Positions 44,676-62,255 of a stretch of 64,000 nucleotides of DNA are shown here, piece by piece; position 1 is the stretch's first letter; every line of letters begins with the position of its first letter. The stretch is from a virus: the IMG/VR virus record IMGVR_UViG_3300039412_000320; one strand, 5' to 3'. The translations under genes were made by a program, and so were the position numbers. A model generated the notes under the pieces. It had not been told where the DNA came from and ran no database searches. It worked only from the letters and a program-made list of their open reading frames with translations.

Positions 44676-45149
44676 ATGGCGCAGCAACCGTTTGACCTTA
44701 GCAACACGTTCAAAGTTTTAGGGGAAGAGAAACCCGCTCCTCCTGCCTCCTCTTCTCCGGTGAATTCCTCTGCTTCCTCTCCGACGCAGAAATTCTCTCT
44801 CTCCGCTAAATGGAAAATATGGGTTGGGGATTGGAATGAGGACGATGATGAACCCATTCCGCAGAGAGAGATTTGGCGGGCTATCCACTGCTTGTTTAAC
44901 CCCAACTTCAAGGGGTGTGACCAGTGGTACAAAGAGCAAGTTCTGACAGTTGGGTTTGTACGCCGGAACGGGCGGAGGATGGTGGAAGATACACCACCCG
45001 ACTACAATCCCAAAGACCATCCGTGGGATATCCTGCATGTTCCTCAGCCGGATAAGCACTGCAAAAAGTGTTTGGGTATAGGCTGGAAAGATAGGCGAGA
45101 CCCCAACAGTCTTGCTACCGATAGAGAGTTTTGTGATTGCTGGAAATAG
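44676..45149 (+). CDS. Hypothetical protein
   Basis: 157-aa ORF with an AGGAG RBS and a Cys/His-containing C-terminus (HCKKC...CDCW). Confidence 0.5.
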   Translation: MAQQPFDLSNTFKVLGEEKPAPPASSSPVNSSASSPTQKFSLSAKWKIWVGDWNEDDDEPIPQREIWRAIHCLFNPNFKGCDQWYKEQVLTVGFVRRNGRRMVEDTPPDYNPKDHPWDILHVPQPDKHCKKCLGIGWKDRRDPNSLATDREFCDCWK

Positions 45150-45399
45150 CAGTATTATTCTATTCCGGGCCTTTGACCGGAACCCAAAAAAATATTTTTC
45201 ATGACTACTTCAAACCCACTATTGACTTCAATTTCCCCACTCCTCGAAATCCCCATTGGTGCTGTGATTTTTTTGTGCCCGGAGAGGTTTGCAAGTAATT
45301 TTGCATTTTCACTACCGGACCCATAAACAGCCGCAAGTATGACCGCAGACGTTCCAAATCCCGACAGAAGGACCGCAGGCTAACTTACAGGAGAGTCCT

Positions 45400-48282
45400 A
45401 TGACTTTGAAGAGTGGTGCTGTTACGCCGTTTCAAGAATATATCTATAAAAGTAGGTATGCCCGTTGGCTTCCTGAGAAGAGTCGTCGGGAAGACTGGTC
45501 TGAAACCGTTCACAGATACATCGAATTTATATCCAAGAGAATCCCCGCCGACGTTCGAGAAGAAACTTCAAAAGAGTTGGAAAATGCTATACTCAATCTG
45601 GAAGTCATGCCCTCCATGCGAGCCATGATGACCGCAGGAAAGGCGCTCGAAAAGGATGAAGTCGCCGCTTATAATTGCAGCTTTTTGGCTATTGATGACC
45701 CCCGTGCATTTGACGAAGCGATGTATATCAGTATGTGCGGTGTAGGCTTGGGTTTCTCCGTAGAGCGCCAATATGTAAATCAACTCCCCACCGTCGCCGA
45801 AAATTTCTATCCCGTTGAGACCATCATCAAAATTCGTGATTCCAAAATTGGCTGGGCTTCCGGTTTCCGCCAACTCATCGCTTTGCTCTACGGTGGTTCA
45901 ATCCCGCAATGGGACCTCTCCTCCGTCCGCCCGGCTGGTATGCCGCTCAAGACCTTCGGCGGCAGGGCATCCGGGCCGGGACCGTTAGACCGCCTCTTCA
46001 AGTTCACTGTTCAGCTTTTCAAGAATGCAGCTGGGCGCAAGCTCACGTCTCTCGAATGCCACGACCTCATGTGCATGGTAGCCGACATCGTGGTTTCAGG
46101 TGGTGTGCGCCGGTCGGCAATGATATCCCTCTCCAATTTATCCGATGACCGGATGCGCAACGCCAAGAACGGTCAGTGGTGGATTGAAAATCCGCAACGG
46201 GCCTTAGCCAACAACTCCGCCGTCTACACCGAAAAACCAGAGATGGTCACCTTCATCCGGGAGTGGTTGTCACTTTGTGAGAGCCGGTCCGGGGAGCGGG
46301 GCATCTACAACCGGGATGCTGCCGTCAAGAAAGCCAAGTCCGTGGGTCGCCGTAAGTGGGAGGGGATTGAGTTTGGAATCAACCCGTGTGGCGAAATTAT
46401 ACTTAGAAGTAAGGGTCTATGTGTATCAAAACAAACCCCCTTAATTACAAAATTAGGGATTATAAAAATAGGTGAAAATGTTGGAAAGACTGTTTCGGTG
46501 TGGAATGGAAAGGGCTGGTCGGACGTTGTTATCCGCCAGACTGGTTCATTACAACAGCTATTGCGTGTTACTTTATCTGATGGTTCTTACTTGGATTGCA
46601 CCCCTGACCACGGGTTCTCAGTAAAGACTAGATTTCAAAAAAATTGGAAACGGGTGGAAGCTAAAAACTTAATGAAGTATAGCAAATACCCCGTTCAGGT
46701 CGAACCTACAAAGATTGTTTCTTCAAAGGATGGAAACTGTATTAATCACGCTTATACCCTTGGTTTTTGCGTTGGTGACGGCAGTAGTAACGGGGATTCT
46801 AGTATTGTTACTGCTGACTTATATGGTCGTAAAGACCAGACCCTGCCCCTGGCAGGAAGTCGTGCGAAAGTACGCCGGAAACCGGGGTATAGTGTTGATA
46901 GTCAAAGAATCTCCTGCACAAAGTTTGTAGATGTCTCTTTAATGAAAGCCTTGAAAACAGATCATACGGCACTAGATAGGCTGTTCTTGTGGAATAAGAA
47001 ATCGGTTTTAGAGTTTGTGGCTGGGTGGATGGATGCCGATGGCTCTGAGACTGGAACAGGAGGAGTGCGCTTGTATATATCCGGTGAGCTTCGTGCTCGA
47101 AAGATGCAACTTCTTTTGACTAAACAAGGGATACGTTCATTGGTAAATTTGTGTGAGTCGGCAGGAATTAAGACCAACTACGGGGTTCGTAGTGATGATT
47201 TGTGGTACCTTCAAATAACAGATTGCTCTAATATCCCCAGTCATAGAGTGAATACAAAGGGTGGGCATATCCCAAGGTTTAAGGGGAAATATCAGATTGT
47301 TCGCAGCGTTGTTCCACTGCCGGGACGGCATGATGTTTTCTGTTTCTCCGAACCTGAGAAACATATGGCTCTCTTTGCTAATGTTCTGACATATCAATGC
47401 AATCTCACCGAGGTTGTCTGCCGTCCGTCCGACGACGCCGTCAGCCTTGAACGTAAAATATGCCTTGCGGCGATTCTAGGCACCCTACAATCGACGTTAA
47501 CGGAATTTAGGTACCTGCGTAAGGATTGGCAGCGAAACGCCGAGGAAGAGCGCTTATTGGGCGTTTCACTCTCGGGAATCATGGACAACCGGCTGCTCTC
47601 CACCAACAGCAAGGAGCTTGCTCCCCTTCTGGACCACCTCCGTCAACACGCTGTCGCCGTTAACGTGGAGTGGGCAGGGAAGCTGGGCATCACCCCCTCC
47701 GTCGCCGTTACCTGTGTCAAGCCGTCCGGCACGGTCAGCCAACTGGTCAACTGCTCGCCAGGCATCCATACGAGGTTTAGCGAATACCTCGTGCGGGCTA
47801 TCCGGGAAGACCGTAAAAATCCCATTGGGGCATTCCTCAAGGCATGTGGAGTTCCCAATGAGCCAGATGTTACGAAACCCAACGATGTGGATGTGTTCTT
47901 CTTCCCCTTGGCTTCCCCCGAGGGGTCTATCACTCGGAACAAGCTGACGGCTATTGAACAGCTTGAACTCTACCTCACTTACCGGCAGCACTGGACCGAA
48001 CACAACCCCAGTACGACCATCTATGTCCGGGACCACGAGTGGTTGGAAGTGGCTACATGGGTCTACAAGCACTTTGACCAAATCGGCGGGATAGCATTCC
48101 TTCCATTCACCAACCACATCTATAAGCAGGCTCCCTACACGGAGGTATCCGAAGTGGAGTATCGGGCGGCTAGTCTTAAGATGCCGGAAATAGACTGGTT
48201 AAAGCTTCCTGAATTTGAGAAAGATGACCACACCACGGCGATGAAGGAAGTTGCTTGCTCTGGAAACAGTTGCGATATATAA
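45400..48282 (+). CDS. nrdJ: Class II (adenosylcobalamin-type) ribonucleotide reductase, interrupted by an intein
   Basis: Extein motifs GGVRRSAMISLSNL and NPCGEIILRSKGL...CNLTEV match the NrdJ active-site pattern NPCGE(x8)CNL. A 326-aa insertion sits exactly before the CNL cysteine. Confidence 0.8.
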   Translation: MTLKSGAVTPFQEYIYKSRYARWLPEKSRREDWSETVHRYIEFISKRIPADVREETSKELENAILNLEVMPSMRAMMTAGKALEKDEVAAYNCSFLAIDDPRAFDEAMYISMCGVGLGFSVERQYVNQLPTVAENFYPVETIIKIRDSKIGWASGFRQLIALLYGGSIPQWDLSSVRPAGMPLKTFGGRASGPGPLDRLFKFTVQLFKNAAGRKLTSLECHDLMCMVADIVVSGGVRRSAMISLSNLSDDRMRNAKNGQWWIENPQRALANNSAVYTEKPEMVTFIREWLSLCESRSGERGIYNRDAAVKKAKSVGRRKWEGIEFGINPCGEIILRSKGLCVSKQTPLITKLGIIKIGENVGKTVSVWNGKGWSDVVIRQTGSLQQLLRVTLSDGSYLDCTPDHGFSVKTRFQKNWKRVEAKNLMKYSKYPVQVEPTKIVSSKDGNCINHAYTLGFCVGDGSSNGDSSIVTADLYGRKDQTLPLAGSRAKVRRKPGYSVDSQRISCTKFVDVSLMKALKTDHTALDRLFLWNKKSVLEFVAGWMDADGSETGTGGVRLYISGELRARKMQLLLTKQGIRSLVNLCESAGIKTNYGVRSDDLWYLQITDCSNIPSHRVNTKGGHIPRFKGKYQIVRSVVPLPGRHDVFCFSEPEKHMALFANVLTYQCNLTEVVCRPSDDAVSLERKICLAAILGTLQSTLTEFRYLRKDWQRNAEEERLLGVSLSGIMDNRLLSTNSKELAPLLDHLRQHAVAVNVEWAGKLGITPSVAVTCVKPSGTVSQLVNCSPGIHTRFSEYLVRAIREDRKNPIGAFLKACGVPNEPDVTKPNDVDVFFFPLASPEGSITRNKLTAIEQLELYLTYRQHWTEHNPSTTIYVRDHEWLEVATWVYKHFDQIGGIAFLPFTNHIYKQAPYTEVSEVEYRAASLKMPEIDWLKLPEFEKDDHTTAMKEVACSGNSCDI
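46420..47397 (+). mobile_element. Intein with LAGLIDADG homing endonuclease domain inside nrdJ
   Basis: Begins CVSKQTPLITKLGII (intein block A). Contains LGFCVGDGSS and VAGWMDADGSETG (LAGLIDADG motifs). Ends ...DVFCFSEPEKHMALFANVLTYQ with a C-terminal Gln instead of Asn, followed by the +1 Cys of CNL. Confidence 0.8.
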
Positions 48283-48332
48283 TCCTGTAGTTTTGGTATT
48301 TGTGAACTATAGAAACCTTTATCAGAGGGGCC

Positions 48333-49091
48333 ATGAAACAAGTATGTGGAGTTTACTGTATTTCTCTTGTTAATACAGAGCGCAACTATGTCGGGCAAGC
48401 CAAAGATGTTTTCAAACGTTGGAGGGAGCATCGGTGGGCTTTATCTAAGGGTGTGAATAAATCCAAAAGATTGCAAAGGGCGTGGAACAAATACGGTTCC
48501 GCTGCTTTTCTATTTAGGGTTTTGGAAGAATGTCCGTGCGACCCACTTGTGTTACTTACGAGAGAACAATATTGGATTGATGAACTTCAAGCCCACAAGA
48601 AAGGATTTAACTGTTCTCCGGTTGCTGGTTTGTCTACCTTGGGGGTTAAGTTTTCCGCTTCAACTAAGGCTAAGATATCAGAAAAAGCCAAAGGAAGGGT
48701 GATATCGGAAGAAACAAGAAGGAAAATTAGTGATGCCTTGAAGGGTCGATTATTTTCCTCAGAGCATAGGGCTCGATTATCGAAGGTAAGTACTCAAAGA
48801 ATGCTTACCTCTCCTGATAGATTTATTATCGGAAAGTGGTCTCACAACCACCCTCGTTTTGGAAAGGACAACTCGTTTTATGGTAAGCATCACTCGGATG
48901 ATGTAAAATTAATAATGTCAGAAAAACATCAAGGGAAAACAGCCTCTTCTGAGCTTTGTGCTTTACGCTCTAAAAATGCAACTGGGAAAAACAACCCCAT
49001 GTTTGGAAGAAAACATTCAGAAGAGACTAAGGAAAAAATTAGGCAAGCCCGAATTTTACGGGTTACGAGTATTGTAAGACAGGAAAGCTGA
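48333..49091 (+). CDS. GIY-YIG homing endonuclease with NUMOD3-like repeats
   Basis: GVYCISLVNTERNYVGQAKDVFKRWREH is the GIY-YIG motif; it also has repeated S(E/P)ETRRKIS / HSEETKEKIRQAR modules. It sits immediately downstream of nrdJ. Confidence 0.8.
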   Translation: MKQVCGVYCISLVNTERNYVGQAKDVFKRWREHRWALSKGVNKSKRLQRAWNKYGSAAFLFRVLEECPCDPLVLLTREQYWIDELQAHKKGFNCSPVAGLSTLGVKFSASTKAKISEKAKGRVISEETRRKISDALKGRLFSSEHRARLSKVSTQRMLTSPDRFIIGKWSHNHPRFGKDNSFYGKHHSDDVKLIMSEKHQGKTASSELCALRSKNATGKNNPMFGRKHSEETKEKIRQARILRVTSIVRQES

Positions 49092-49107
49092 TTATTAAAG
49101 GATACAC

Positions 49108-49398
49108 ATGGAAACAATTCTTAAGTTCGTTCTGACTTTCGTGGATGGTACTACGGAGGTGCAGGAGTTGCCCGTCCCATCTGAACATGCTGAGGCTCTC
49201 GCCATGCAGGCGATTGTGCAGTATGCCAGTGTGGGTCTCCTCAAGAAGTTGGAGAAGGAGAATAAATTTGTGCTCATTGCGGCGAGTCAAATCGCCATGG
49301 TAGAGGTGGAGCTTCCTAAAGTCACCCTTGCCACAAGCCTTGATGCCAAAATAGCGGGGAACGCTGCCGATAATATCCGTAAAATCACCCTCGGCTAA
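49108..49398 (+). CDS. Hypothetical protein
   Basis: 96-aa ORF with an AAGGA RBS. Confidence 0.45.
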   Translation: METILKFVLTFVDGTTEVQELPVPSEHAEALAMQAIVQYASVGLLKKLEKENKFVLIAASQIAMVEVELPKVTLATSLDAKIAGNAADNIRKITLG

Positions 49399-49482
49399 GC
49401 CCCGTAGTAGAGTCCCCTATCGTACCCCGCCCCCCGATGGACGCTGCCGGAAATTAAAATTCCTTCGGCGTCCATCCCGCAC

Positions 49483-49508
49483 GTGGTATACTGAGAGTGA
49501 AGGATTTT
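49483..49508 (+). promoter_or_regulatory. Extended -10 promoter plus RBS (conserved motif copy 2)
   Basis: ACGTGGTATACT GAGAGTGAAGGA TTTT ATG. Confidence 0.5.
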
Positions 49509-51202: not shown

Positions 51203-51281
51203 ACTCCGGTGAGTCGAGCGGCTAAGACACCTGCCTTACAAGCAGGTAAACTCGTGGGTTCGAGTCCCACCCGGAGTACCA
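51203..51281 (+). tRNA. tRNA, anticodon UAC (Val) by manual fold
   Basis: Acceptor ACTCCGG/CCGGAGT. Anticodon arm CCTGC-CTTACAA-GCAGG has a loop identical to E. coli tRNA-Val(UAC). T arm GTGGG-TTCGAGT-CCCAC. CCA is encoded. Confidence 0.75.
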
Positions 51282-51292
51282 AAATTAAATAT

Positions 51293-51370
51293 GCCCCGGT
51301 AGCTTAGTGGCTTCAAAGCGCCACCTTCACACGATGGAGAACACAGGTTTGAGTCCTGTTCGGGGCACCA
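51293..51370 (+). tRNA. tRNA, anticodon CAC (Val?) by manual fold
   Basis: Acceptor GCCCCGG/TCGGGGC. D stem GCTT/AAGC. Anticodon arm CCACC-TTCACAC-GATGG (one mismatch). T arm ACAGG-TTTGAGT-CCTGT. CCA is encoded. Confidence 0.7.
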
Positions 51371-51604
51371 AGTTCTGGTTGACAGTAATGTCTACCAGAT
51401 GTCAACGTATACGGCTAATCCGGCTGACGACCGGTGTTATCGGCGACTTACGTTAAGAGCCGCCCTGTTTTAAGCCTTGTGGCGGGTAACCGCAGCGGTC
51501 ATAGACGACTGTAAATAGAAGGGCATCCAAGGCTGGCCTCTCCCGTTCGATTTGGGATACTGTGCTCATGGGTATGGTAAGCCAGCCCACAAGGCGAAAG
51601 ATTT

Positions 51605-51678
51605 GCAGGGGTAGCACAATGGCAGTGCGGGACGTTGCCAACGTTCATACGGGAGTTCGATTCTCCTCCTCTGCTCCA
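51605..51678 (+). tRNA. tRNA-Gly (GCC)
   Basis: Acceptor GCAGGGG/CCTCTGC. D arm GCAC-AATGGCA-GTGC. Anticodon arm GGACG-TTGCCAA-CGTTC. T arm GGGAG-TTCGATT-CTCCT. CCA is encoded. Confidence 0.85.
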
Positions 51679-51685
51679 AGTTTGT

Positions 51686-51759
51686 GGGGCCATCGTCTAA
51701 TGGGAGGACTTCTGCCTTGCACGCAGAAAACCGGGGTTCGACCCCCCGTGGTTCCACCA
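51686..51759 (+). tRNA. tRNA-Ala (UGC)
   Basis: Acceptor GGGGCCA/TGGTTCC with G3:U70. Anticodon arm TCTGC-CTTGCAC-GCAGA. T arm CGGGG-TTCGACC-CCCCG. CCA is encoded. Confidence 0.85.
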
Positions 51760-51763
51760 AAGT

Positions 51764-52312
51764 TTAGGCATACTTAGACATCCCTCGGGATTGTCTTCCG
51801 TTGCCTTTATTTCGACCACAGAAAGTTGGAGTCTGGCTGTTGCAGTTTGGACAAGTTAAGCGGACGTTGTCTGGTTTACAGTTTCCAGCATCTCCATCAA
51901 TGTGGTCTACGACTGGAATAAGGGGTTTGTTGCACCAAACGAGCAGCATACCGCAGATTTCACAGTTATTTCCTCTTTTTGAGATGAGGATTTTGCGGAT
52001 GGTTTTTCGGTGCTTGACTCCCCCTAGTTCAAACTGTTCTAGGGCCTTTGCATGGAGGTAGTGCCCACGTCCTTTCGGTTCTGGTTTCGGTTTTTTTGGT
52101 CTCTTTGCGTTGCTTGCTTTTGCCGAACAAGAACTGGAGCAATATGTGTTATCAAACCGTTTGTTGTAGGGGATGGATGCTTCGCATACGGGGCAACGTT
52201 TAGGGCTGAGCATGTATTTAGCTTCATTTTTAGCAGTCCGGCTCTTGTTGCTGCATGCTAGCGAACAATAGATGTGGTTTGCTGGTGTATTACAGACTGG
52301 GCATTGATTCAT
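51764..52312 (-). CDS. HNH homing endonuclease
   Basis: VDHIDGDAGNCKPDNVRLTCPNCN is the classic HNH core; there are several CxxC pairs upstream. Start placed at the internal Met (MNQCPVCN). The longer ORF-track start at 52363 would overlap the tRNA-Gly at 52326. Confidence 0.65.
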   Translation of the reverse strand: MNQCPVCNTPANHIYCSLACSNKSRTAKNEAKYMLSPKRCPVCEASIPYNKRFDNTYCSSSCSAKASNAKRPKKPKPEPKGRGHYLHAKALEQFELGGVKHRKTIRKILISKRGNNCEICGMLLVWCNKPLIPVVDHIDGDAGNCKPDNVRLTCPNCNSQTPTFCGRNKGNGRQSRGMSKYA

Positions 52313-52325
52313 AGTTGTTTTTTGG

Positions 52326-52400
52326 GCGGGATTGATGTCAATGGTAGCATGCCACGCTTCCAACGTGGTCGTACCGATTCGACTTCGGTATCCCGCTCCA
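52326..52400 (+). tRNA. tRNA-Gly (UCC)
   Basis: Acceptor GCGGGAT/ATCCCGC. Anticodon arm CCACG-CTTCCAA-CGTGG. T arm ACCGA-TTCGACT-TCGGT. CCA is encoded. Confidence 0.85.
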
Positions 52401-52446
52401 ACCTCCTATAAAAGGAGGTCGAAAGTCGGTTTTCGCTAAAGTTTAG

Positions 52447-52520
52447 GCGGGTATGGTATATTGGGTGTGCCCAACCTTCCCAAGGTTGTGAAACGGATTC
52501 GATTCCCATGTCCCGCTCCA
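52447..52520 (+). pseudogene. Degenerate tRNA-Gly-like element (anticodon CCC), probable pseudo-tRNA
   Basis: Its ends (GCGGGTA...GTCCCGCTCCA) match the neighbouring Gly tRNAs and it has a clean anticodon arm CAACC-TTCCCAA-GGTTG. The T stem (ACGGA/CCCAT) does not pair and acceptor pairs 6 and 7 are mismatched. It also contains TGGTATATT, an extended -10-like sequence. Confidence 0.4.
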
Positions 52521-52681
52521 AGATTGTAGTCACTCTAAGGGCTGTCGAAGCTGACGAGTGGCGAGGTTCTACCAGCAGGGTCCCTCAGTAAGGGGGACTG
52601 TGGTGGTTCCCCTGAAAAGGGACCCCGAGCAGTAGAACCTGCGGATGACTAGCTTAACCAGCCGGTTGTCCCGAATTTTGC

Positions 52682-52783
52682 GGGTGTAGCTTAATCAGAG
52701 CGGTGGTCCACCAGACCACGCCGTGTCCGGGCTTGATATCAAGTCAGGCATGTTGTACCGGCTGAACGCCGGTCGCCCGCTCC
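52682..52783 (+). ncRNA. tRNA-Gly-like element with a ~37-nt insertion between the anticodon arm and T arm
   Basis: It shares its 5' end GCGGGTGTAG and 3' end CGCCCGCTCCA with tRNA-Gly(CCC) at 58750. The acceptor pairs, the anticodon-like arm is GTGGT-CCACCAG-ACCAC, the T-like arm is ACCGG-CTGAACG-CCGGT, and there is a long extra region containing the palindrome CTTGATATCAAG. Confidence 0.4.
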
Positions 52784-52790
52784 AGTTTGT

Positions 52791-52865
52791 GGGCCTGTAG
52801 CTCAGCGGGAGAGCGCTTGCTCGACAAGCAAGAGGTGGTAGGCTCGACCCCTACCGGGCGCACCA
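52791..52865 (+). tRNA. tRNA, anticodon GAC (Val?) with C33
   Basis: Acceptor GGGCCTG/CGGGCGC (6 of 7 pairs). D arm GCTC-AGCGGGA-GAGC. Anticodon arm CTTGC-TCGACAA-GCAAG. T arm GTAGG-CTCGACC-CCTAC. CCA is encoded. The unusual C at position 33 lowers confidence in the anticodon call. Confidence 0.65.
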
Positions 52866-52877
52866 AAGTTTGGGACC

Positions 52878-52958
52878 GGAGCTTAAGCAGAACCTTCTGC
52901 CATCGGAAGAGCGTAGTGTTTACAACACTTGGGGGTGGGAATCCCTCCGGCTCCACCA
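52878..52958 (+). ncRNA. tRNA-like element ending in CCA, non-canonical
   Basis: 3' end CGGCTCC-A-CCA with T-like arm GGGGG-TGGGAAT-CCCTC and a 5' partner GGAGCTT. The interior (hairpins GCAG-AACCTT-CTGC and GTGTT-TAC-AACAC) cannot be folded into a standard cloverleaf by hand. Confidence 0.3.
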
Positions 52959-53044
52959 AGAACGACGCTGGGTTCGTGCTCCAGAAGTGGGTGACACGAC
53001 GCCAAGGAGAGGGGTTAACAGCCCGGAGAGTAGGACCAGCGTCA

Positions 53045-53695
53045 TCAAGTTTTGGGTACGTCGCCTAATGGGATGGCACTTCCCTCGCACGGAAGAACGA
53101 TTGCGGGTTCGACTCCCGCCGTATCCACCAAGTTTTTGAAAGTATATAGTCCATCCTTAGCGATGAAGTGTTCATCTTCATGGCAGGTGGGGCAAAGGAT
53201 TTCAAGGTTTTCAGGTTTGTTGTTTTTTCGATTGCGGTCTATATGGTGAACCCGCAGAACTGGGGTAAAGCGGGCGTATCCACAACGATTGCATTTTTTT
53301 GGATGATGTTTGAATGCAATTTCTCGATACGCCGCTCCACCGTTAGTGTAATGGTCTGGTCTCATATCATGAAATGCCTCACCGGATAGGATAGACTGAG
53401 CGTGGTCTTTACATGCCCGTGAGCAAAAAAGCAGACCAGATTTTGATGCTTTAATTTGAGCGGGGCGTTTTTCAAAGCTAGTAAAGCAAAATGAGCATTT
53501 TACAGTAACTCTTGTTCTACTAGCAACCCCCGAGCACTCTCTTGAGCAGTATTGACCATTAGAGTGTTTGGGTAAGTAAAAAGGCCTTTTGCATGTGGGA
53601 AGTGTACAGTAATGAAGAAACAGCCTTCTTGGCTTCCCATCGTAGAGTGTAGATATTATTGATTCTTCGGGTGGATTTGATATGTCAGTATGCAA
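53045..53695 (-). CDS. HNH homing endonuclease
   Basis: RVHHIDRNRKNNKPENLEILCPTCHEDEH is the HNH core. The stop-to-stop ORF runs across the tRNA-Ala(CGC) gene on the opposite strand. Confidence 0.65.
   Translation of the reverse strand: MHTDISNPPEESIISTLYDGKPRRLFLHYCTLPTCKRPFYLPKHSNGQYCSRECSGVASRTRVTVKCSFCFTSFEKRPAQIKASKSGLLFCSRACKDHAQSILSGEAFHDMRPDHYTNGGAAYREIAFKHHPKKCNRCGYARFTPVLRVHHIDRNRKNNKPENLEILCPTCHEDEHFIAKDGLYTFKNLVDTAGVEPAIVLPCEGSAIPLGDVPKT
53054..53130 (+). tRNA. tRNA-Ala (CGC)
   Basis: Acceptor GGGTACG/CGTATCC with G3:U70. Anticodon arm CTTCC-CTCGCAC-GGAAG. T arm GCGGG-TTCGACT-CCCGC. CCA is encoded. Confidence 0.8.
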
Positions 53696-53737
53696 GTGTG
53701 ATTACCTCCACCTATGTATTTGATAGTTGATTTTCAC

Positions 53738-53811
53738 GGCCTGTTCGTCTATCGGCAGGACAGCAGATTCTCAATCTGTAAAGAGGGGTTCGATTCCCCT
53801 ACGGGCTACCA
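53738..53811 (+). tRNA. tRNA, anticodon CUC (Glu) by manual fold
   Basis: Acceptor GGCCTGT/ACGGGCT. Anticodon arm GCAGA-TTCTCAA-TCTGT. T arm AGGGG-TTCGATT-CCCCT. CCA is encoded. Confidence 0.75.
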
Positions 53812-53818
53812 AATTCAT

Positions 53819-53895
53819 GGGGTCGTAGACAAGTGGCTTAAGTCGCCAGATTCTCAATCTGGAAACCGTGGGTTCAAATCCCATCGGCCCTGCCA
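53819..53895 (+). tRNA. tRNA, anticodon CUC (Glu?) by manual fold; second copy with a different body
   Basis: Acceptor GGGGTCG/CGGCCCT. Anticodon arm CCAGA-TTCTCAA-TCTGG. T arm GTGGG-TTCAAAT-CCCAT. Discriminator G. CCA is encoded. Confidence 0.75.
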
Positions 53896-53907
53896 AGTGG
53901 AGATGTT

Positions 53908-54105
53908 GTGGCAACGTTGACGCTGGACATAAACGAGGAAGCGAAGTTCAAGGCTTGGGAGAAAGAGCACAAGAAAAAGTGCAAACTCCGGCCCGGTACG
54001 TGTGGTGACCTTTACAGCTTCAACATCTGCCCAAGTGGTATTGGGGATTTTATCAGTGTTCACTGCCCGTGTGGAGCACAAGCAGACCTGACGGGAAGTT
54101 TGTAA
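53908..54105 (+). CDS. Small Cys-rich protein (zinc-ribbon-like)
   Basis: 65-aa ORF with a GTG start after GGAG. Contains CKLRPGTCGD...CPSGIGDFISVHCPCG. Confidence 0.35.
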   Translation: MATLTLDINEEAKFKAWEKEHKKKCKLRPGTCGDLYSFNICPSGIGDFISVHCPCGAQADLTGSL

Positions 54106-54375
54106 AAGGCAAGACCATGAGCCTATGGATAACATCATTCACAAACTGCTGGTATACGAGCCAATTCGTATATTTGATGAGTTTAGCCACTGGATTGTGG
54201 TAGGATGGATGATTCTCCATACGTTGAGTTGGGCGATAGTGGAAGGATGCCGACTCTACTGGTCAACGAAAATAAAGATTAGGCGCATTTTCATACAAGA
54301 TGTCGCCGAAGAGTAACGCACCTGTCGCCAAGTGGAAAGGCATAATTTGAACTACCAACCCCCTTTATAGGGGTT

Positions 54376-54888
54376 ATGATGCTTATTTGCAAAAATTGCG
54401 GTGGGTATATTCCATCAAGGGTAAATGTTGATGGGAAAATAAAAAAGCTGAACGGTCGCAGGTATTGTTTATCCTGTAGCCCATTTAAGGGAAAGAAATT
54501 TAATTATGAAACTGACCGGGATGAGAATAGAAATTTCCACTGCCGCTTATGTGGTCAGAACACCGGTCCTCGCAGGCGTATGTGTAATACCTGTGTATCC
54601 CGCATTAGACGTTTTCGAGCTAAACGTACAGCCGTAAAGTGGCTTGGAGGAAAATGCAATCGGTGTGGATGGGTCGGAGACATTGCGGCTTTTGAGTTTC
54701 ACCACCCCGGAGACAACAAAGAGTTCGATATTGGTACGGTTAGTAACAGAGCATGGGCAACGATAGTCAAAGAATTAAAAAAATGTGAATTACTCTGTTC
54801 CAACTGTCATCGTACCGAACATCATGGCATCCGTGATGAGAATTTCTTAAAAATAGCGGATGAATATGGTGGAAAAATTTATGTTTAG
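54376..54888 (+). CDS. HNH homing endonuclease
   Basis: N-terminal CxxC pairs. C-terminal FEFHHPGDNKEFDIG...CELLCSNCHRTEHH is the HNH core. Confidence 0.7.
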   Translation: MMLICKNCGGYIPSRVNVDGKIKKLNGRRYCLSCSPFKGKKFNYETDRDENRNFHCRLCGQNTGPRRRMCNTCVSRIRRFRAKRTAVKWLGGKCNRCGWVGDIAAFEFHHPGDNKEFDIGTVSNRAWATIVKELKKCELLCSNCHRTEHHGIRDENFLKIADEYGGKIYV

Positions 54889-54889
54889 T

Positions 54890-54963
54890 GACTCGGATTC
54901 CGAATGGTTAGGAGGCGGTCTGCAAAACCGTTTAAGTGGGTTCGATTCCCATCCGGGTCTCCA
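54890..54963 (+). tRNA. tRNA-Cys (GCA)
   Basis: Acceptor GACTCGG/CCGGGTC. Anticodon arm GCGGT-CTGCAAA-ACCGT. T arm GTGGG-TTCGATT-CCCAT. CCA is encoded. The gene starts 2 nt after the HNH stop. Confidence 0.85.
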
Positions 54964-54969
54964 GTTTAA

Positions 54970-55046
54970 GCACGGGTACCCAAGCGGCTTAAGGGACAGG
55001 TCCGCAAAACCTGCATTCATAGGTTCAAATCCTATCCCGTGCTCCA
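54970..55046 (+). tRNA. tRNA, anticodon GCA-like (Cys?) with C33
   Basis: Acceptor GCACGGG/CCCGTGC. D arm CCC-AAGCGGCTTAA-GGG. Anticodon arm CAGGT-CCGCAAA-ACCTG. T arm ATAGG-TTCAAAT-CCTAT. CCA is encoded. Confidence 0.65.
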
Positions 55047-55155
55047 AGTGAGGTCATGGCTACCATTGACCACGTAGTGGGTGCGGGCAAAATGATGAGG
55101 CTGCTGCCCGCCTTTGTACTCCCAAACGTGGATACTTCGCAGCCTCAAACTTTAT

Positions 55156-55233
55156 ACCGTGGAAGACAAAGTCGTCGAGTCCTCTGGCTTTCAACCAGAG
55201 CATTAGCGGGTCCGAGTCCCGTCCACGGTACCA
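55156..55233 (+). tRNA. tRNA-Glu (UUC)
   Basis: Acceptor ACCGTGG/CCACGGT. Anticodon arm TCTGG-CTTTCAA-CCAGA. T arm GCGGG-TCCGAGT-CCCGT. CCA is encoded. Confidence 0.8.
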
Positions 55234-55238
55234 ACTCT

Positions 55239-55332
55239 GGGGGATAGCACCGACGTGCAGGCAGGTCCTATAAACCTGTAGTTGCGGCTGATTACCGTGC
55301 TCGGCGGGGATTGACACCCCGGTCCCCTACCA
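55239..55332 (+). ncRNA. 94-nt tRNA-like element (class II-like, non-canonical)
   Basis: 7-bp acceptor GGGGGAT/GTCCCCT plus A-CCA. T-like arm CGGGG-ATTGACA-CCCCG. Anticodon-like arm CAGGT-CCTATAA-ACCTG. Long extra arm with a GCGG/CCGT hairpin. The D region is a tight GCAC-CGAC-GTGC hairpin with no GG. It is followed by TTTTTT. Confidence 0.4.
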
Positions 55333-55368
55333 TTTTTTAAGAATCTCAGTATTAGTCCTTGGGAGCAT

Positions 55369-55575
55369 ATGATGAAAAAGGAAAAAATCAGGGATTACGA
55401 GGTTCAGGCAAAACTCACACTCTACACCAGTACCACTGTTTCGGCCCGGTCTTTAGAGGAAGCGACTGAAAAGTCAAAAAACCTTAAGGAGCAGGATTTC
55501 GTAGACTTCAACGGTGATTACATCGATGGTAATATGCGGATTACCGGAGTCTATGAGTCTGGGTTTGAACTATAA
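55369..55575 (+). CDS. Hypothetical small protein
   Basis: 68-aa ORF between the tRNA block and the tmRNA. Confidence 0.4.
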   Translation: MMKKEKIRDYEVQAKLTLYTSTTVSARSLEEATEKSKNLKEQDFVDFNGDYIDGNMRITGVYESGFEL

Positions 55576-55675
55576 GTAATGTGACGGTTTGGGACACTCC
55601 GGTGGTTACATAAGGGACATGCCTTAGGGCACTACGCTCACACTGGGTAGCATATATGCGGTGTCCCGTTTAATG

Positions 55676-56026
55676 TGGGGGCGTTCTGGTTTCGACGGGA
55701 GCGCTCATTGCAGGAAGGCACGCCGGGAGGTTACCCTGCCCGTAACAAGGGTTAACAACGCAATTGCCACAGCGCAATATGCATTTGCTTAATCGCTAGA
55801 TTAGGCACGCTTGCTCTGCTTTAGCCTGTCGGGTAGAGGCCAAGCGCCGATAGAGAGGCTGCGACCGGGGATGCAGCCGATATCCGGCGAGATAAAGGCT
55901 TGCACCGTGGTTCTGATATGCCTGTTTCAGCAGAGTCATGGCAAAGAGCAGTACGAAGCAGGATAAGCGTGTAGTCTTCTTGTTGTGACACTTTTCGGAC
56001 CTGGGTTCAAATCCCAGCGCCTCCAC
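55676..56026 (+). ncRNA. ssrA: tmRNA (transfer-messenger RNA)
   Basis: 5' end GGGGGCGTTCTGGTTTCGACGGG matches the tmRNA consensus GGGGCUGAUUCUGGAUUCGACGGG. The 3' tRNA-like end CTGGG-TTCAAAT-CCCAG CGCCTCC A CCA pairs with the 5' end. An internal tag ORF GCA ATT GCC ACA GCG CAA TAT GCA TTT GCT TAA encodes (ANN)AIATAQYAFA*. Confidence 0.8.
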
Positions 56027-56208
56027 CAAAAAATTTATGGCTTCCGCCAAATGTTCCAAATGCAAGCATCGTAAATACAAAAAGCCCTGCACCGTAAGGG
56101 TCAAGGTCAAGGGGTGGATGAAGAGTATCCCGCCCGGATGGCAACAGGATTATGAACCCTGCGGGTGCAAGGAGACGGTGTGAGTAATTGCGACCGCTGA
56201 TATCCATT

Positions 56209-56820
56209 ATGAGTTGCCACGCTCACCGTCGCTGGCAGCAGCAACTCAGGGAAACATGGTTGAGAGAGTGCCCGGTTGATTATCGGTTTTTCTTGGGTAG
56301 TCCCAAATTGGAAAATGCTGATGATGATGAGGTTTCGCTGAATGTTTCTGACACATACGGAGACCTCTCATCCAAGGTCCAAGCTGCATATCAATGGGTG
56401 ATAATGTACAGCTATGACCACGTTTTTAAGTGTGATGTTGATACCTATGTTTGCACCCCTCGGTTACTCCGGTCGGGGTTTGAGCGGCATGACCATATAG
56501 GACAACGGGGTGTGGGGGAAAATAACCAACCCTACGGAGGCTCCGGGTACTGGCTCAGTAGGAAAGCGTTAGAGTTTCTTGCGTCAGCGCCCTGCTTAAA
56601 GGACACCCGTTGCTACAACGATGAGGATTGGTGGGTATGGGCAACGCTGTCATTTAATAGCGTTTGTCCCACAGAGCACGATGGTCGTTACAGTATGACG
56701 GAGGGAAGGGTCCCTCTCCCGGAAAACGACATCATCACTTACCACCCACACACACTTACCACCGAAGAACGTTTCATGGGCATTCAAATGGTCCACGAAA
56801 AGGCCAAGGAGATTAGATGA
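56209..56820 (+). CDS. GT31-family (Fringe/beta-1,3-galactosyltransferase-like) glycosyltransferase
   Basis: HRRWQQQLRETW fits the GT31 signature RR..IR.TW. It also has a DxD-like KCDVDTYV and YGGSGYWLSRKAL (GT31 GGGyvlSr motif). Start taken at the ATG at 56209; the ORF track starts at TTG 56188. Confidence 0.6.
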   Translation: MSCHAHRRWQQQLRETWLRECPVDYRFFLGSPKLENADDDEVSLNVSDTYGDLSSKVQAAYQWVIMYSYDHVFKCDVDTYVCTPRLLRSGFERHDHIGQRGVGENNQPYGGSGYWLSRKALEFLASAPCLKDTRCYNDEDWWVWATLSFNSVCPTEHDGRYSMTEGRVPLPENDIITYHPHTLTTEERFMGIQMVHEKAKEIR

Positions 56821-56833
56821 ATTTGGTAGCACT

Positions 56834-56870
56834 ATGTAGTGTGAGATGTAGTGTGAGATGTAAGGTGACG
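56834..56870 (+). repeat. Tandem 12-nt direct repeat (ATGTAGTGTGAG x2 plus a degenerate third copy)
   Basis: ATGTAGTGTGAG ATGTAGTGTGAG ATGTAAGGTGACG, directly downstream of the glycosyltransferase stop and upstream of the RNase P RNA-like element. Confidence 0.6.
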
Positions 56871-56959
56871 GCGTGAGCATCGGGAGCATGAGTTACTATC
56901 TTACTTTGAAGGCCCTTGACCCGGATGGGTCGAAGGGAATCTTCGCTCCTAATAATCCC

Positions 56960-57205
56960 AAGTTTGGAAAAGGTTTGTGGACTGGACAACTGCTGCCCCG
57001 CAAGGGGGAGAGGAAAGTCGGAGCTACACAGAGCACCGTGCGGGGTAACGCCCCGGCGCAGTAGCAATACTGCGACAATTAGAGCAACAGAGACGAGCCG
57101 GTTAAGTCCGGGTGAAACGGGCAATCTTCACGGGGAGCAATCTCGAATAGGAGGGGATGAACCTGCTCGGTTCGCTATAACCCTCGGGTTGAGAGCTTGA
57201 CCCCC
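56960..57205 (+). ncRNA. rnpB: RNase P RNA-like element (bacterial type A-like, apparently minimised)
   Basis: Collinear matches to E. coli M1 RNA conserved regions. (1) GAGAGGAAAGUCGGAGCUACACAGAGCA matches GGAGGAAAGUCCGGGCUCCAUAGGGCA. (2) Hairpin CGGGG-UAACG-CCCCG matches CCAGG-UAACG-CCUGG, with compensatory changes. (3) GCAACAGAGA is an exact 10-mer. (4) CCGGGUGAAACGGG matches AGGGUGAAAGGGUG. (5) GAUGAACCUGCUCGGUUCGC matches GACAGAACCCGGCUUAUCGG, with AGUCGG/UCGGUU able to form P4. It has a short GCAA-capped P3. Boundaries are approximate. No credible protein ORF covers the region. Confidence 0.45.
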
Positions 57206-57323
57206 CTAGTAATAGGGGGGGCTAGATTGATGGTTGTCGCCTCGCAAGAGGAACAAAACTCCGCTTATAAGTCCACAAATAATTTAGTGATTTGACTACG
57301 GCAACCTTATTAGAGAGATTGCC

Positions 57324-57788
57324 ATGAAACAAAGTAAGTCACAAAAGCGGTTGAATGCGGACTATACAAGACAGTTAGGTATGAGTCCGGGGTCAGCTAC
57401 CCATAAGCTTACTCGAAACCTTCTTTTTAGGTACATCCAACAAAACCACGATGATGTTTGTTATCGCTGTGGTTCAAAGATTGAGACGTTAGCATCTTTT
57501 AGCATTGAACACAAAGAGCCTTGGCGTAATTCGGACCCGAATCTGTTTTGGGATTTAGAAAATATTTCGTTTGCCCATAAAAAATGCAATATTCAGGCAG
57601 CCCAACACATCGGAAAAAGAGTAATAGGTCCACCGGGAACAAGCTGGTGCTCAAATCACAAAATGTTTTTTCCTGTTGATAGGTTTTATAAAAACCGGTC
57701 AATGTGGAATGGGTTACACCGTCAGTGTAAAGAGTGTCATAAAAATTGGAAGAAGGCTTATAGGTCCACAAAATTTTCAGTATTATAG
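57324..57788 (+). CDS. HNH homing endonuclease
   Basis: CYRCGSKIE...FSIEHKEPWRNSDPNLFWDLENISFAHKKCN is an HNH core with a zinc ribbon. Confidence 0.65.
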   Translation: MKQSKSQKRLNADYTRQLGMSPGSATHKLTRNLLFRYIQQNHDDVCYRCGSKIETLASFSIEHKEPWRNSDPNLFWDLENISFAHKKCNIQAAQHIGKRVIGPPGTSWCSNHKMFFPVDRFYKNRSMWNGLHRQCKECHKNWKKAYRSTKFSVL

Positions 57789-58076
57789 CTTGGTGCGTGA
57801 TGCGAATCAGCGCTGCTTGACCACGGATTTACTCAGCAATGGGAGCCGAGCTAGTAACTCTTTTACCGGGGGCCGCAAGAAGAGTGCGGATAGTCGGCTC
57901 ACTTCCAATTCCGCCGACGATAAAGATTGTAGGATGGTGAACAAGGCTACCCTATCGGGTCGAACCTTACTTTAGTTAGTAGTTGTGATTGGTCGTTTGT
58001 GGTCGCTGTTGTTGCGATTATTGATTAGGACCCACGACGCTGACTTGTTGGTCCCCGTCCAAATTCAAGGAGGCAT

Positions 58077-58712
58077 ATGAAATCCGATTCCGCATTTATC
58101 GCCGTAGTTTTAGACCGTTCCGGTTCCATGAGCATCGTCAAGGATGCGACCATCGACGGCTTCAACGAGTTCATCAATGGGCAGAAGCAGCAGCCCGGAG
58201 AAGCCCATCTCCTGTTGGTCCAATTCGACTCCATTGACCCCCATGAAATCGTTATCGACGCACCTTTGACGGACGTTCCAAATCTGACCAAGGACACCTT
58301 CTCCCCACGGGAGAACACTCCCCTGCATGACGCCATGGGGTGGACGATTATCGAGGTTGGCGAGCGGCTGGAAAAGATGCCGGAAGAGGAGCGCCCGGAG
58401 AAGGTCATCATCGTCATCCTCACGGATGGTCATGAGAACGCCAGCAAGGAATTCACGAAGGAAAATGTGGCGAACATGGTGAAGCACCAGACAGAGAAGT
58501 ACAACTGGACCTTCATCTTCTTGGGAGCCAATCAGAACGCCGTTCTGACCGCCAAGGGATTCAACATTTCGGCGGATACTTCCATGAGCTACAACAACAA
58601 CCCCTCCTCCACTCAGGAGGTATACCTTGCCGTAAGCGCCAACACCAGCGCCGTCCGGCGTGGTCTCAAGGCGTCGTTCACTTCCGCCCAACGGAAGGCG
58701 GCAAAACAGTAG
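58077..58712 (+). CDS. von Willebrand factor A (vWA) domain protein
   Basis: AVVLDRSGSM is the MIDAS DxSxS motif; it is followed by IIVILTDGHEN and a Rossmann-like alternation. RBS AGGAGG. Confidence 0.7.
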   Translation: MKSDSAFIAVVLDRSGSMSIVKDATIDGFNEFINGQKQQPGEAHLLLVQFDSIDPHEIVIDAPLTDVPNLTKDTFSPRENTPLHDAMGWTIIEVGERLEKMPEEERPEKVIIVILTDGHENASKEFTKENVANMVKHQTEKYNWTFIFLGANQNAVLTAKGFNISADTSMSYNNNPSSTQEVYLAVSANTSAVRRGLKASFTSAQRKAAKQ

Positions 58713-58749
58713 CCTGTTTGTATAGACAGGCTACCGAATCCTTATATAT

Positions 58750-58826
58750 GCGGGTGTAGTTCAGTCCGGTAGAACGCCAGCTTCCCAAGCTGGATGTCGT
58801 GGGTTCAAATCCCATCGCCCGCTCCA
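58750..58826 (+). tRNA. tRNA-Gly (CCC)
   Basis: Acceptor GCGGGTG/CGCCCGC. D arm GTTC-AGTCCGGTA-GAAC. Anticodon arm CCAGC-TTCCCAA-GCTGG. T arm GTGGG-TTCAAAT-CCCAT. CCA is encoded. Confidence 0.85.
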
Positions 58827-60803: not shown

Positions 60804-62255
60804 ATGCGCAACCCACTGTTGTGTCCAAAGACGGCTATCTTGACTTCACCCAGTTATCTGGAGTCTCTCTATTCCCTCCTTTCGGGTGACCAAAGAAATG
60901 ACCGGTCCGCTTATCTCGAAGCCCGTCAGCATCTTGGCTCCGCCATCAACACCGTATCGGCAAAGATTCCCCCCAAGAGTCGGTTGACCAGAGATATCCG
61001 CTTTGCTCGCTGGGATATGGAGACCGCTAACGCCTTCGCCAAATCGGGAGATTGGGGCGCAGCAGCAGATAGCCAGCTACACGCTGTCTGGAAACTCCAG
61101 AACGTCGTAGCGGCCCTCCAGCGCAGCAAAAAGGCATACGGGTATGATGTTTGTCTTACCGCTGACTCTCAACTTCCGCTGCTGGACGGAACAGAAATAG
61201 CCATAGTTGACCTTCTAGGAAAGGACCATTTCTGGGTTTATTCAATAAACGAGAAGGGAATGCTTAGACCCGGATACGGGCATGACGCCCGACTGGTTGA
61301 AAAAGATGCCCCCCTACTAGAAGTAAGGTTGGACAACGGTAAAACTATAAGGTGTACCTTTACCGAGAGATTTATGCTAAGAGGGGGAGGATACAAACGG
61401 GCAGCAGAACTTATCCCCGGAGATTCCTTGATGCCTCTCTACAGAGACTTGGCTCCGATTGCTTTTGAGGGTAATGAATATGAAAGGACATACGAGCCGG
61501 GTAGAGAATCGTGGAAGTTTACCCATCGTTTTGCGGAAGCTAGATGTCCAAAGGGGTATGTAAGACATCATAAAGATTTGAATCGCTTCAACAATTCCCC
61601 TGACAATCTCGCTGTTATAACTTGGGAAGAACATCAGAAATTGCATCAAGAGTTGGGAGTTCCAGTTACAGATAAAGGGCGGACGGCACGTAGCCGTAAC
61701 ATGTCCAAAATTAACTCTGACCGCAAGGGGAAACCACGTCCTTGGGCACACTTTCCTCATCCGTGGGTGAATAAAGAAGAAAAGGCCAATATTTTGGTGA
61801 AATACAGGGAGTTGTTGGGGGAAGAGGGGTTTGTTGTTGCCCAGAAGCACAGAAGTCAACTAGCTACCCACAAACGCTGGCACACAGACCGCCAGATAGT
61901 CTCTGCCACTTGTTTGCTTTGTGCCTCCGTTAATCATAAGGTGGTATCAGTCGCATCTGCTGGTACTGCTGATGTATATGATTTTATTGTTGATAAGTAT
62001 CATAATTTCGCTTTGAGTGCCGGGGTTTTTGTACATAACAGTGGGCAAACACAGGGAGAAATTTTCAACGGCTCGGAGGCAATTGCCAACCGGGAAAACC
62101 AGAAGAATATTGACGACACGGCACAGCCGTTTGAGCAGCACCAGAATGTTAAAAATCCACTAAATCTAACAAGGGACTGGGAGGCGGAGAACGACTACCC
62201 CTCGCTCGCTGAAAAGAAGAGCAAGCGGATTCACTGGCCTCCCCGACTGAGATAA
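60804..62255 (+). CDS. Small hypothetical protein interrupted by an HNH-containing intein
   Basis: Exteins are aa 1-116 and the last 71 aa. The central 296 aa show intein termini. Confidence 0.65.
61152..62039 (+). mobile_element. Intein with embedded HNH endonuclease domain
   Basis: Begins [21 protein letters not shown] (block A). Internal [27 protein letters not shown] is an HNH motif. Ends [24 protein letters not shown] followed by +1 Ser (block G, HN|S). Confidence 0.75.

Follow-up and report, generated by a model that had tools for sequence, protein, structure and literature searches.

How can a ribonucleotide reductase (RNR) be made from a gene whose catalytic core is parted by a foreign coding segment? 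This question is raised by the nrdJ locus of the IMG/VR virus record IMGVR_UViG_3300039412_000320, of which we analysed a stretch of 64,000 nucleotides (the window; the features given below with window coordinates lie on its + strand). The open reading frame (ORF) at 45400..48282 encodes a 960-amino-acid (aa) precursor of an RTPR-like (monomeric class II) RNR. An initial annotation, made from the letters and a list of their ORFs, had proposed that this precursor holds a 326-aa intein with a LAGLIDADG endonuclease directly before the cysteine of the CNL motif. This proposal is borne out in all its elements and at the positions it gave. The element is a Gln-ended LAGLIDADG RNR intein of an already known type, and a free-standing GIY-YIG gene lies beside it.

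We identified the host gene from the ORF list, a profile match and a structural homologue. TIGR02505, the NCBIfam model for adenosylcobalamin-dependent RTPR, matches the precursor at an expectation (E) value of 2e-77 in three stretches, one of which ends exactly at aa 341. Once the intein is removed, the 634-aa product scores 283.4 bits on this model and its best stretch (aa 142-603) runs unbroken over the aa 340/341 junction. The score is below the 340-bit equivalog cut-off, and we therefore name the enzyme only RTPR-like class II RNR; it represents a diverged subfamily, probably dependent on B12 and presumably acting on either NTP or NDP. The spliced sequence aligns to the structure of Lactobacillus leichmannii RTPR (PDB 1L1L; E=1.4e-48) with no gap across NPCGE..CNL, so that taking the insert out leaves a continuous host motif. 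Cys93 (YNCSF) is thereby equated with RTPR Cys119, Cys330 (NPCGE) with Cys408, and the CNL Cys (341 in mature numbering) with Cys419. Cys408 is the thiyl radical site of RTPR, and Cys419 is the redox partner of Cys119. The C-terminal Cys pair CxxxxC (ACSGNSC) is also kept, so the active-site cysteine set of RTPR is complete. By this alignment and the motif positions, the N-extein is encoded at 45400..46419 (aa 1-340, with Cys93 and Cys330) and the C-extein at 47398..48282 (aa 667-960 plus the stop, with ACSGNSC). Megablast of the gene against 50,697 phage records returned no match.

The intein (46420..47397) runs from Cys1 to Gln326, precursor aa 341-666, and separates these cysteines. NPCGE occupies aa 328-332 and is followed by eight residues, IILRSKGL, after which the insert opens with CVSKQTPLITKLG at aa 341 (nt 46420); it closes with ANVLTYQ at aa 666 (nt 47397) and is followed by Cys667-Asn-Leu. 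The intein thus lies between NPCGEIILRSKGL and CNL, immediately before the Cys that aligns with RTPR Cys419. The position in the catalytic core had been remarked on. It is the normal habit of inteins, and in close relatives other inteins precede the other two active-site cysteines.

The insertion is precise and in frame. Two homologues that are 96% identical (P0003 and P0004) are exactly 634 aa long and have no insert, and more than 100 others measure 627-667 aa. The window is syntenic with the contigs that carry intein-less homologues (L003-L006, at most 364 kb). In BLASTN comparison with L003, homology reaches 46403-46422, is absent over the insert and restarts exactly at 47398. The intein-less allele of L003 reads ...CGGTCGAAGGGGTTG|TGCAACCTCACCGAAG... 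at the insertion site, which is also given as ...GAAATCATCCTCCGGTCGAAGGGGTTG|TGCAACCTCACCGAAGTTGTC.... The identical 960-aa precursor occurs on 17 contigs from several samples, which excludes chance or an assembly artefact.

Searched by sequence against the PDB, the intein had no hit at E<=1, so a comparison of folds was needed. An AlphaFold2 model of the intein, built from a 20-sequence alignment, has a mean predicted local distance difference test (pLDDT) score of 94 and a predicted template-modelling (pTM) score of 0.91. Its top Foldseek matches in the PDB are TliVMA (1.9e-15), PI-SceI (1e-11) and PI-PfuI (3.5e-11), and PI-TkoII is matched as well. I-DmoI (E about 1e-6) fits the endonuclease domain and the Ssp DnaE mini-intein fits the HINT domain. 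Model and matches together display both a HINT fold and a two-motif LAGLIDADG architecture of the I-DmoI/PI-SceI kind. The 326-aa insert is thus confirmed as an intein with a two-motif LAGLIDADG endonuclease domain.

Blocks A, B, F and G are all present, and their residues are those of a large family. Conservation is given here for 112 full-length inteins, namely 111 relatives and the window's own. Block A (46420..46458, CVSKQTPLITKLG) begins with Cys1, which is found in 112/112. Block B (46579..46623, DGSYLDCTPDHGFSV) holds Thr61 at position B:7 (109/112), His64 at B:10 (112/112) and Phe66 at B:12, where the family has Phe in 66 members and Trp in 46. LAGLIDADG motif 1 (46753..46782, YTLGFCVGDG) supplies the catalytic Asp120 (Asp in 109/112), and G119-D120-G121 is invariant in alignment A1. 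Motif 2 (47008..47043, LEFVAGWMDADG) supplies the catalytic Asp207 (109/112), with D205, D207 and G208 invariant in the same alignment. Block F (47329..47376, HDVFCFSEPEKHMALF) contains Cys308, which we assign to F:4, with Glu311 and His315; Cys308 and Glu311 are each found in 112/112. Block G (47377..47400) comprises ANVLTYQ and Cys+1, as placed from the relatives and the RTPR alignment. Its Thr324 occupies G:5 (Thr in 106/112), Tyr325 G:6 (Tyr 45, Lys 30, Gly 19, His 10) and Gln326 G:7. The His-Asn consensus of this block is replaced by Tyr-Gln, leaving no penultimate His.

The extent of this family emerged from an exhaustive HMMER search of 1.84 billion cluster representatives, which found 1423 relatives of the intein at E<=1e-3 and 115 at E<=1e-30. 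Among the best 150, 126 could be read at the C-terminus; 113 of these end in Gln and 11 in Asn. The insertion site is x|CNL in 75/126, and the +1 residue is Cys in nearly all. Other relatives precede the radical Cys of class I (SNL|CxE) or class II RNR (NP|CxE), and a few lie in unrelated proteins. A word-indexed protein search gave two relatives, one 49% identical and ending TYQ|CNL (L001), the other 62% identical and ending TFQ|CNL (P0002). PHROGs has no family for the intein. By homology the window's intein is a member of this Gln-terminated RNR group, with full-length similarity, Cys1, Gln at G:7 and a +1 Cys that is an active-site cysteine.

The terminal Gln had been noted from the outset and described as rare. 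The residue is as described (codon CAA, TYQ|CNL); the rarity holds for inteins at large and not for this RNR family, where Gln occupies G:7 in 101/112 full-length inteins and Asn in 11/112. The Gln ending is therefore a family-wide rule in this RNR intein lineage. We take the Gln to be selected and not an error, because CAA is two changes away from an Asn codon, the 17 contigs are identical and relatives end in Gln too. Thr at G:5 co-varies with the terminal residue, being present in 100/101 inteins that end in Gln and 6/11 that end in Asn (Fisher p=2e-5, uncorrected for phylogeny). Gln-ended inteins have been shown experimentally to splice: the RNR intein of Chilo iridescent virus (CIV) works better with Gln, its native residue, than with Asn, and the Pol II inteins of Pyrococcus abyssi (Pab) and Methanoculleus marisnigri (Mma) splice slowly with Gln (PMC4031507). 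The same source documents Gln as a functional substitute for Asn, and splicing by inteins that have no penultimate His.

These features suggest how an active enzyme could be made. The 960-aa precursor would be translated whole and would not be catalytic, because the intein parts the NPCGE radical-Cys loop from the redox-pair Cys equivalent to RTPR Cys419. The HINT domain would then splice itself out by the standard class 1 route. Cys1 would form the N-terminal thioester, activated by Thr61 and His64, and Cys+1, which is the catalytic Cys itself, would take over the N-extein. Gln326 would cyclize instead of the usual Asn and release the intein, with Cys308 and Thr324 assuming the assisting roles that usually fall to Asp F:4 and the penultimate His. 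An S-to-N shift would finally restore the NPCGEIILRSKGL-CNL peptide and with it the active site. The LAGLIDADG domain, for its part, is predicted to act during co-infection by cutting the insertion site of nrdJ alleles that have no intein, and the intein would then be copied into the cut allele along with a short flanking stretch of extein. We put the probability of this explanation at about 0.6, a joint figure for an active bifunctional LAGLIDADG intein with class 1 splicing, Gln cyclization and homing, acquired horizontally by homing and residing in nrdJ of an apparent huge phage.

Several observations weigh against this explanation. Curated profiles stay below threshold, with 15.5 versus 35.8 bits for PF14890 and 22.2 versus 24.5 for TIGR01445, and LAGLIDADG_3 (PF14528) is marginal at 21.3 bits against a cut-off of 22.5. 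The usual helpers of step 3 are missing, the penultimate residue being Tyr and not His and F:4 being Cys and not Asp, so the chemistry may depart from the class 1 textbook scheme. At the 'WCT' positions of class 3 inteins stand the invariant block-F Cys, Thr G:5 and the aromatic B:12, so Cys1 may or may not be the first nucleophile. The F:4 assignment of Cys308 itself comes from an ungapped alignment and spacing, not from coordinates. From Cys308 it is 16 residues to Thr G:5 and 18 to the C-terminus, the spacing of positions 107, 123 and 125 of gp41-1, the intein onto which a WCT triplet has been grafted (PMC7664689). Asp305 was considered as F:4 and rejected, since it is found in 56/112 against 112/112 for Cys308 and the C-terminal spacing suits Cys308.

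The sub-threshold scores of the standard Pfam and NCBIfam intein models, together with a precomputed annotation in the source databases that lists RNR_Alpha only and no intein domain, are also what would be seen if the 326-aa segment were a native RNR insertion domain or an assembly chimera. We give this next to no credence. It is refuted by the 96% identical homologues that lack exactly this segment, the break in DNA homology to L003, the HINT and LAGLIDADG fold and the 17 independent contigs. Homologous segments also occupy the same site in RNRs whose exteins are just 24-56% identical.

The unusual block F raises a more substantive alternative, in which its cysteine acts as a nucleophile. 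Cys308 would either attack the N-terminal junction by the class 3 route, forming a branched thioester that then passes to Cys+1, or serve in a relay from Cys1 to Cys308 to Cys+1; Gln would cyclize either way. Cys308 is as invariant as Cys1, B:12 is always aromatic, and the full W-C-T triplet occurs in 44/112 relatives at what are the class 3 signature positions, F:4 normally being Asp (PMC2807308, PMC5222942). The co-variation of Thr G:5 with the terminal Gln, uncorrected for phylogeny as it is, points the same way. So do the inteins at the Cys119-equivalent site of the same RNR clade, which have the same VFC..EP and TGN blocks together with H-R-W; two of them, P0058 and P0272 (57% identical to each other), begin with Pro1 and thus have no N-terminal nucleophile. 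Against this, Cys1 is kept in all 112 diverse inteins, and Thr B:7 and His B:10, the residues of class 1 N-terminal activation, are conserved. The Pro1 inteins are distant from the window's (26% over 125 aa, E=3e-5). The window's triplet reads Phe66, Cys308 and Thr324, with Phe in place of Trp, and mutation of Trp B:12 blocked class 3 splicing (PMC5222942). The +1 residue is Cys, and nearly all class 3 inteins have Ser or Thr there (PMC2807308). We regard a nucleophilic Cys308 as possible yet considerably less probable than class 1 splicing.

The comparison with individual class 3 inteins is similarly mixed. The window's intein shares Cys F:4, Thr G:5 and an aromatic B:12 (Trp in 41% of its family) with the DnaB intein of mycobacteriophage Bethlehem and the Msm and Mch DnaB-1 and Dra Snf2 inteins. 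It differs from them in keeping Cys1, Thr B:7 and Cys+1, in having Phe at B:12 and Tyr-Gln instead of His-Asn, and in residing in an RNR and not a helicase or terminase. The N-terminal nucleophile and the +1 Cys speak against placing it in class 3. As a speculation that we think doubtful, the large RNR-intein clade could be a natural hybrid of class 1 inteins and class 3 inteins, having an obligatory Cys1, an invariant block-F Cys serving as second nucleophile or redox gate, Thr G:5, Phe or Trp at B:12, no penultimate His and a cyclizing Gln. Class 3 inteins have been described in helicase-like proteins and terminases, with one Cys+1 example (PMC2807308, PMC5222942). If the hybrid were real, the clade, together with the Pro1 inteins of sister RNRs, would document class 3 splicing arising or operating outside helicases and terminases, and with Cys+1.

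The Pro1 inteins are of note in themselves. P0058 (958 aa, on a 342-kb ENA contig) and P0272 (a partial sequence from an NCBI metagenome-assembled genome) are class II RNRs with an intein at the Cys119-equivalent site that bears a full class 3 signature: Pro1, H-R-W, Cys F:4, T-G-N and Cys+1. P0011, P0014 and P0108 hold allelic inteins that share this triplet and begin with Cys1.

A different role for the cysteines can be imagined by analogy. A class 3 DnaB intein reportedly senses oxidative stress (PMC6195587). Were a disulfide among Cys1, Cys308 and Cys+1 to hold the precursor unspliced until it meets a reducing cell, RNR maturation would be tied to thiol redox state, and such gating would fit either nucleophile scheme. 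The active site does hold three invariant cysteines, and the +1 Cys is a redox-active residue of the RNR. Other inteins are known to have disulfide switches, the Gln-ended Mma Pol II intein among them, as far as the reference list of PMC4031507 indicates. The idea is pure analogy, the Cys pattern is equally explained by catalysis, and we consider it improbable.

The homing part of our preferred explanation would make sense of several features of the alleles. The GC content of the intein is 0.43 and that of the exteins 0.52-0.54. Abutting the intein, at 46360..46419, is a cluster of synonymous differences from L003 with AT-rich codons. These last 60 nt of the N-extein contain 14 nt differences and no aa differences, and the five preceding 60-nt bins contain 1-3 each; an example from the tract is GGCGAAATTATACTTAGAAGTAAGGGTCTA in the window against GGCGAAATCATCCTCCGGTCGAAGGGGTTG in L003. 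Co-conversion with a donor allele richer in AT would leave such a tract, judging from known homing behaviour. Over whole BLAST segments, the C-extein has 89.8% nt identity to L003, compared with about 95-96% in the flanks. Intein-plus and intein-minus alleles come from assemblies with neighbouring ENA accessions (ERZ272497xx to ERZ272499xx).

We also observed that, over its full length, nrdJ has diverged from L003 clearly more (79-97% per 150-nt window, nearly all of it synonymous) than the upstream helicase region (97-100%). This suggests repeated recombination or import at nrdJ. The excess divergence could alternatively mark a decaying gene, in which an intein that is splicing-dead or very slow has turned this nrdJ copy into an effective pseudogene; the non-canonical Tyr-Gln terminus and the slow splicing of the Gln-ended Pab and Mma Pol II inteins would be in line with that. 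The 2.9-kb frame is intact, however, all catalytic residues of the extein are kept and nearly all the differences from L003 are synonymous. Every catalytic residue of the intein is the family consensus, the Gln is conserved family-wide and the identical allele recurs on 17 contigs. We therefore judge a dead intein to be highly unlikely.

The distribution of related inteins bears on their mobility. In several pairs the inteins are 45-55% identical and the exteins only 24-28%, with values of 45-49% against 24-26% for P0135-P0137. Inteins so much more alike than their exteins show horizontal spread among distant RNRs. This intein is found in 0/120 of the closest RNR homologues. Six of the 120 hold other inteins, located before the Cys119 equivalent (P0011, P0014, P0058 and P0108) or before the radical Cys (P0009 and P0061). 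Each of the three active-site cysteines in this RNR clade is therefore a landing site for inteins.

Some relatives carry more than one insertion. L001, an ENA contig of 4876 bp at 2x coverage that carries P0001, the best hit of the word-indexed search with the intein, has an nrdJ with two inteins, one ending TKN|CSY at the Cys119-equivalent site and one ending TYQ|CNL at the window's site; its nrdJ is broken by several frameshifts, probably low-coverage assembly errors, and a gene of the Acb3 family lies downstream. Tandem inteins 10-12 extein residues apart occur in L042 (an IMG/VR contig) and in the cyanobacterial L017, L020, L025, L031, L034, L039 and L041. L042 reads ...VLVHN|SEIILRPYQF|CVSPD..., with one intein before SEI and then a Gln-type intein; the NPC|SEI-type junction of the first resembles that of the NrdJ-1 split intein. 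The cyanobacterial tandem junction reads ...AHN|CGEIIGADFH|CV.... Some cyanobacterial loci (L011, L026, L037 and L038) have stop-containing, non-RNR sequence just upstream of the final residues of the N-extein, which may point to an intron.

The second mobile element at the locus lies outside the reading frame. A GIY-YIG gene had been proposed to follow nrdJ directly, and it does: the ORF at 48333..49091 starts 50 nt past the nrdJ stop. The product, 252 aa long, combines a GIY-YIG domain with three NUMOD3 motifs; the GC content of the ORF is 0.41. The ORF matches PF01541 (5.6e-9; 36.6 bits vs 22.6), PF07460 (4.4e-18; 65.3 vs 20.4), TIGR01453 (1.9e-35; 122.9 bits vs 56.05) and phrog_314 'homing endonuclease' (6.6e-38). 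The further claim, that two kinds of mobile element had hit the same gene, fails. L003-L006 have no GIY-YIG gene, and the distance from their nrdJ stop to a 96-aa ORF is 23 nt; the cassette fills this intergenic spacer in the window and leaves nrdJ intact. The name of TIGR01453 implies a group I intron around the gene, which we rejected, there being no Rfam match, group I intron included, in 45100-49500 at the gathering threshold or at E<=1. Since no intron surrounds it and it lies in the spacer, the gene is free-standing and not a second interruption of nrdJ. We likewise rejected a split intein or fractured gene with an endonuclease gene in between, as the intein forms one unbroken in-frame segment and the GIY-YIG gene is past the nrdJ stop.

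The GIY-YIG gene is thus a separate free-standing homing endonuclease gene in an intergenic slot. Homology to L003 ends at 48260, 22 nt before the nrdJ stop, and restarts at 49092. The 3' end of nrdJ beside the insertion (48238..48282) is diverged, with 17 nt differences from L003 in 45 nt. L007, whose RNR protein is 91% identical, has a different 191-aa ORF (11902-12477) in the same slot between nrdJ and the 96-aa ORF; by eye its C-terminus is HNH-like, but Pfam gives no match. Apparently the slot is a hot spot for endonuclease genes of the free-standing kind. The arrangement resembles that of the phage GIY-YIG homing endonucleases of the I-TevI/Seg family and of T4 mobE in combining GIY-YIG with NUMOD3, in lying between genes beside an nrd gene, in being present or absent among close relatives and in its diverged flanks. 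It differs in that the best viral relatives of the window's protein are 36% identical and in not lying inside an intron. PMC3653736 describes endonuclease genes that stand free between nrd genes.

How does the intein compare with those already known? A characterized parallel, likened by published description and not by sequence, is the CIV RIR1 intein, which also ends in Gln, interrupts an RNR large subunit and is full-length with an endonuclease (PMC4031507, PMC1635734). Its host protein, a class I RNR, belongs to a eukaryotic virus. An indirect statement in PMC1635734 suggests that it is allelic with the RNR inteins of Bacillus prophages and cyanobacteria. The P. abyssi and M. marisnigri Pol II inteins share the Gln end and differ in host protein and in their slowness with Gln.

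Relatives by sequence include the nrdJ inteins of filamentous cyanobacteria (Phormidium, Leptolyngbya, Pseudanabaena, Prochloron, Limnothrix, Laspinema and others; L011-L041). These are 42-47% identical over 326 aa, share the site (NPCGEIxGxxFH|C...TGQ|CNL) and have Cys1, the block-F Cys, Thr G:5, the Gln and a LAGLIDADG domain. Unlike the window's intein they are chromosomal, belong to another class II lineage, have a penultimate Gly instead of Tyr and often lie 12 residues past a second intein at NP|CGE. The NrdA inteins of Vibrio phage ICP1, Staphylococcus Silviavirus and Aeromonas phages PhAER-3 and -4 are 28-29% identical at full length (E 1e-17 to 4e-26), with Cys1 in CVAP.T..LT, an LTGQ|C end and a LAGLIDADG domain; their C-termini were read in ICP1, Staphylococcus and Aeromonas phage, 3 of 319 matching phage records. 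The ICP1 NrdA gene is annotated as an intein-containing precursor. These inteins differ in interrupting a class I RNR at SNL|C(S/Q/L)E, before the radical Cys and not the redox-pair Cys. PI-PfuI, the RNR intein of Pyrococcus furiosus (PDB 1DQ3), shares the HINT and two-motif LAGLIDADG fold, as do PI-SceI and TliVMA/PhoVMA (Foldseek E 1e-11 to 2e-15, TM 0.6-0.66). Identity to these is 11-17%, and the window's intein is smaller (326 against 360-540 aa).

The find as such matters little: RNRs are among the commonest intein hosts, inteins favour sites before a catalytic Cys, Ser or Thr, the literature already has inteins that end in Gln, and phage nrd genes are well known to have free-standing homing endonuclease genes beside them. 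Its value lies elsewhere. Curated intein hidden Markov models miss this family and the precursor is annotated as RNR_Alpha only, so many such precursors probably go unrecognized as intein-bearing. The locus also provides a clean natural pair of alleles before and after invasion, with and without both mobile elements, whose RNR proteins are about 96% identical outside the intein; with the abutting synonymous tract, this pair is suited to the study of homing in huge phages. Finally, the residues that mark the family (Cys1, the block-F Cys, Thr G:5 and Gln, with the penultimate His absent), and the fact that Thr G:5 varies together with Gln, yield testable hypotheses on how Gln cyclization is catalysed and how class 1 and class 3 are related.

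The surroundings of the locus look like part of a huge phage genome. The window contains a DnaB-like helicase, an SLT transglycosylase, a collagen-repeat tail fibre, a head-decoration hit and very large ORFs that match no family, and the syntenic contigs are 316-364 kb long. Thirteen tRNA genes lie just downstream of the nrdJ locus, at 51203-58826. The same region also holds a tmRNA (55677-56028, tag ATAQYAFA*) and a complete class A bacterial RNase P RNA (56974-57283; E=2e-58, 185.7 bits over model positions 1-367). Both RNAs are kept in the syntenic 364-kb contig L003, the RNase P RNA at 93% and the tmRNA at 98% nt identity, and no account of an RNase P RNA encoded by a phage turned up in our literature searches. 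A second intein-like ORF is present at 60804-62255, where Pfam Intein_splicing matches aa 127-412 (7.8e-13) and HNH_3 matches aa 247-278. Its junctions read ...AYGYDV|CLTADS...FVHN|SGQTQ, and its exteins are short, about 116 and 64 aa.

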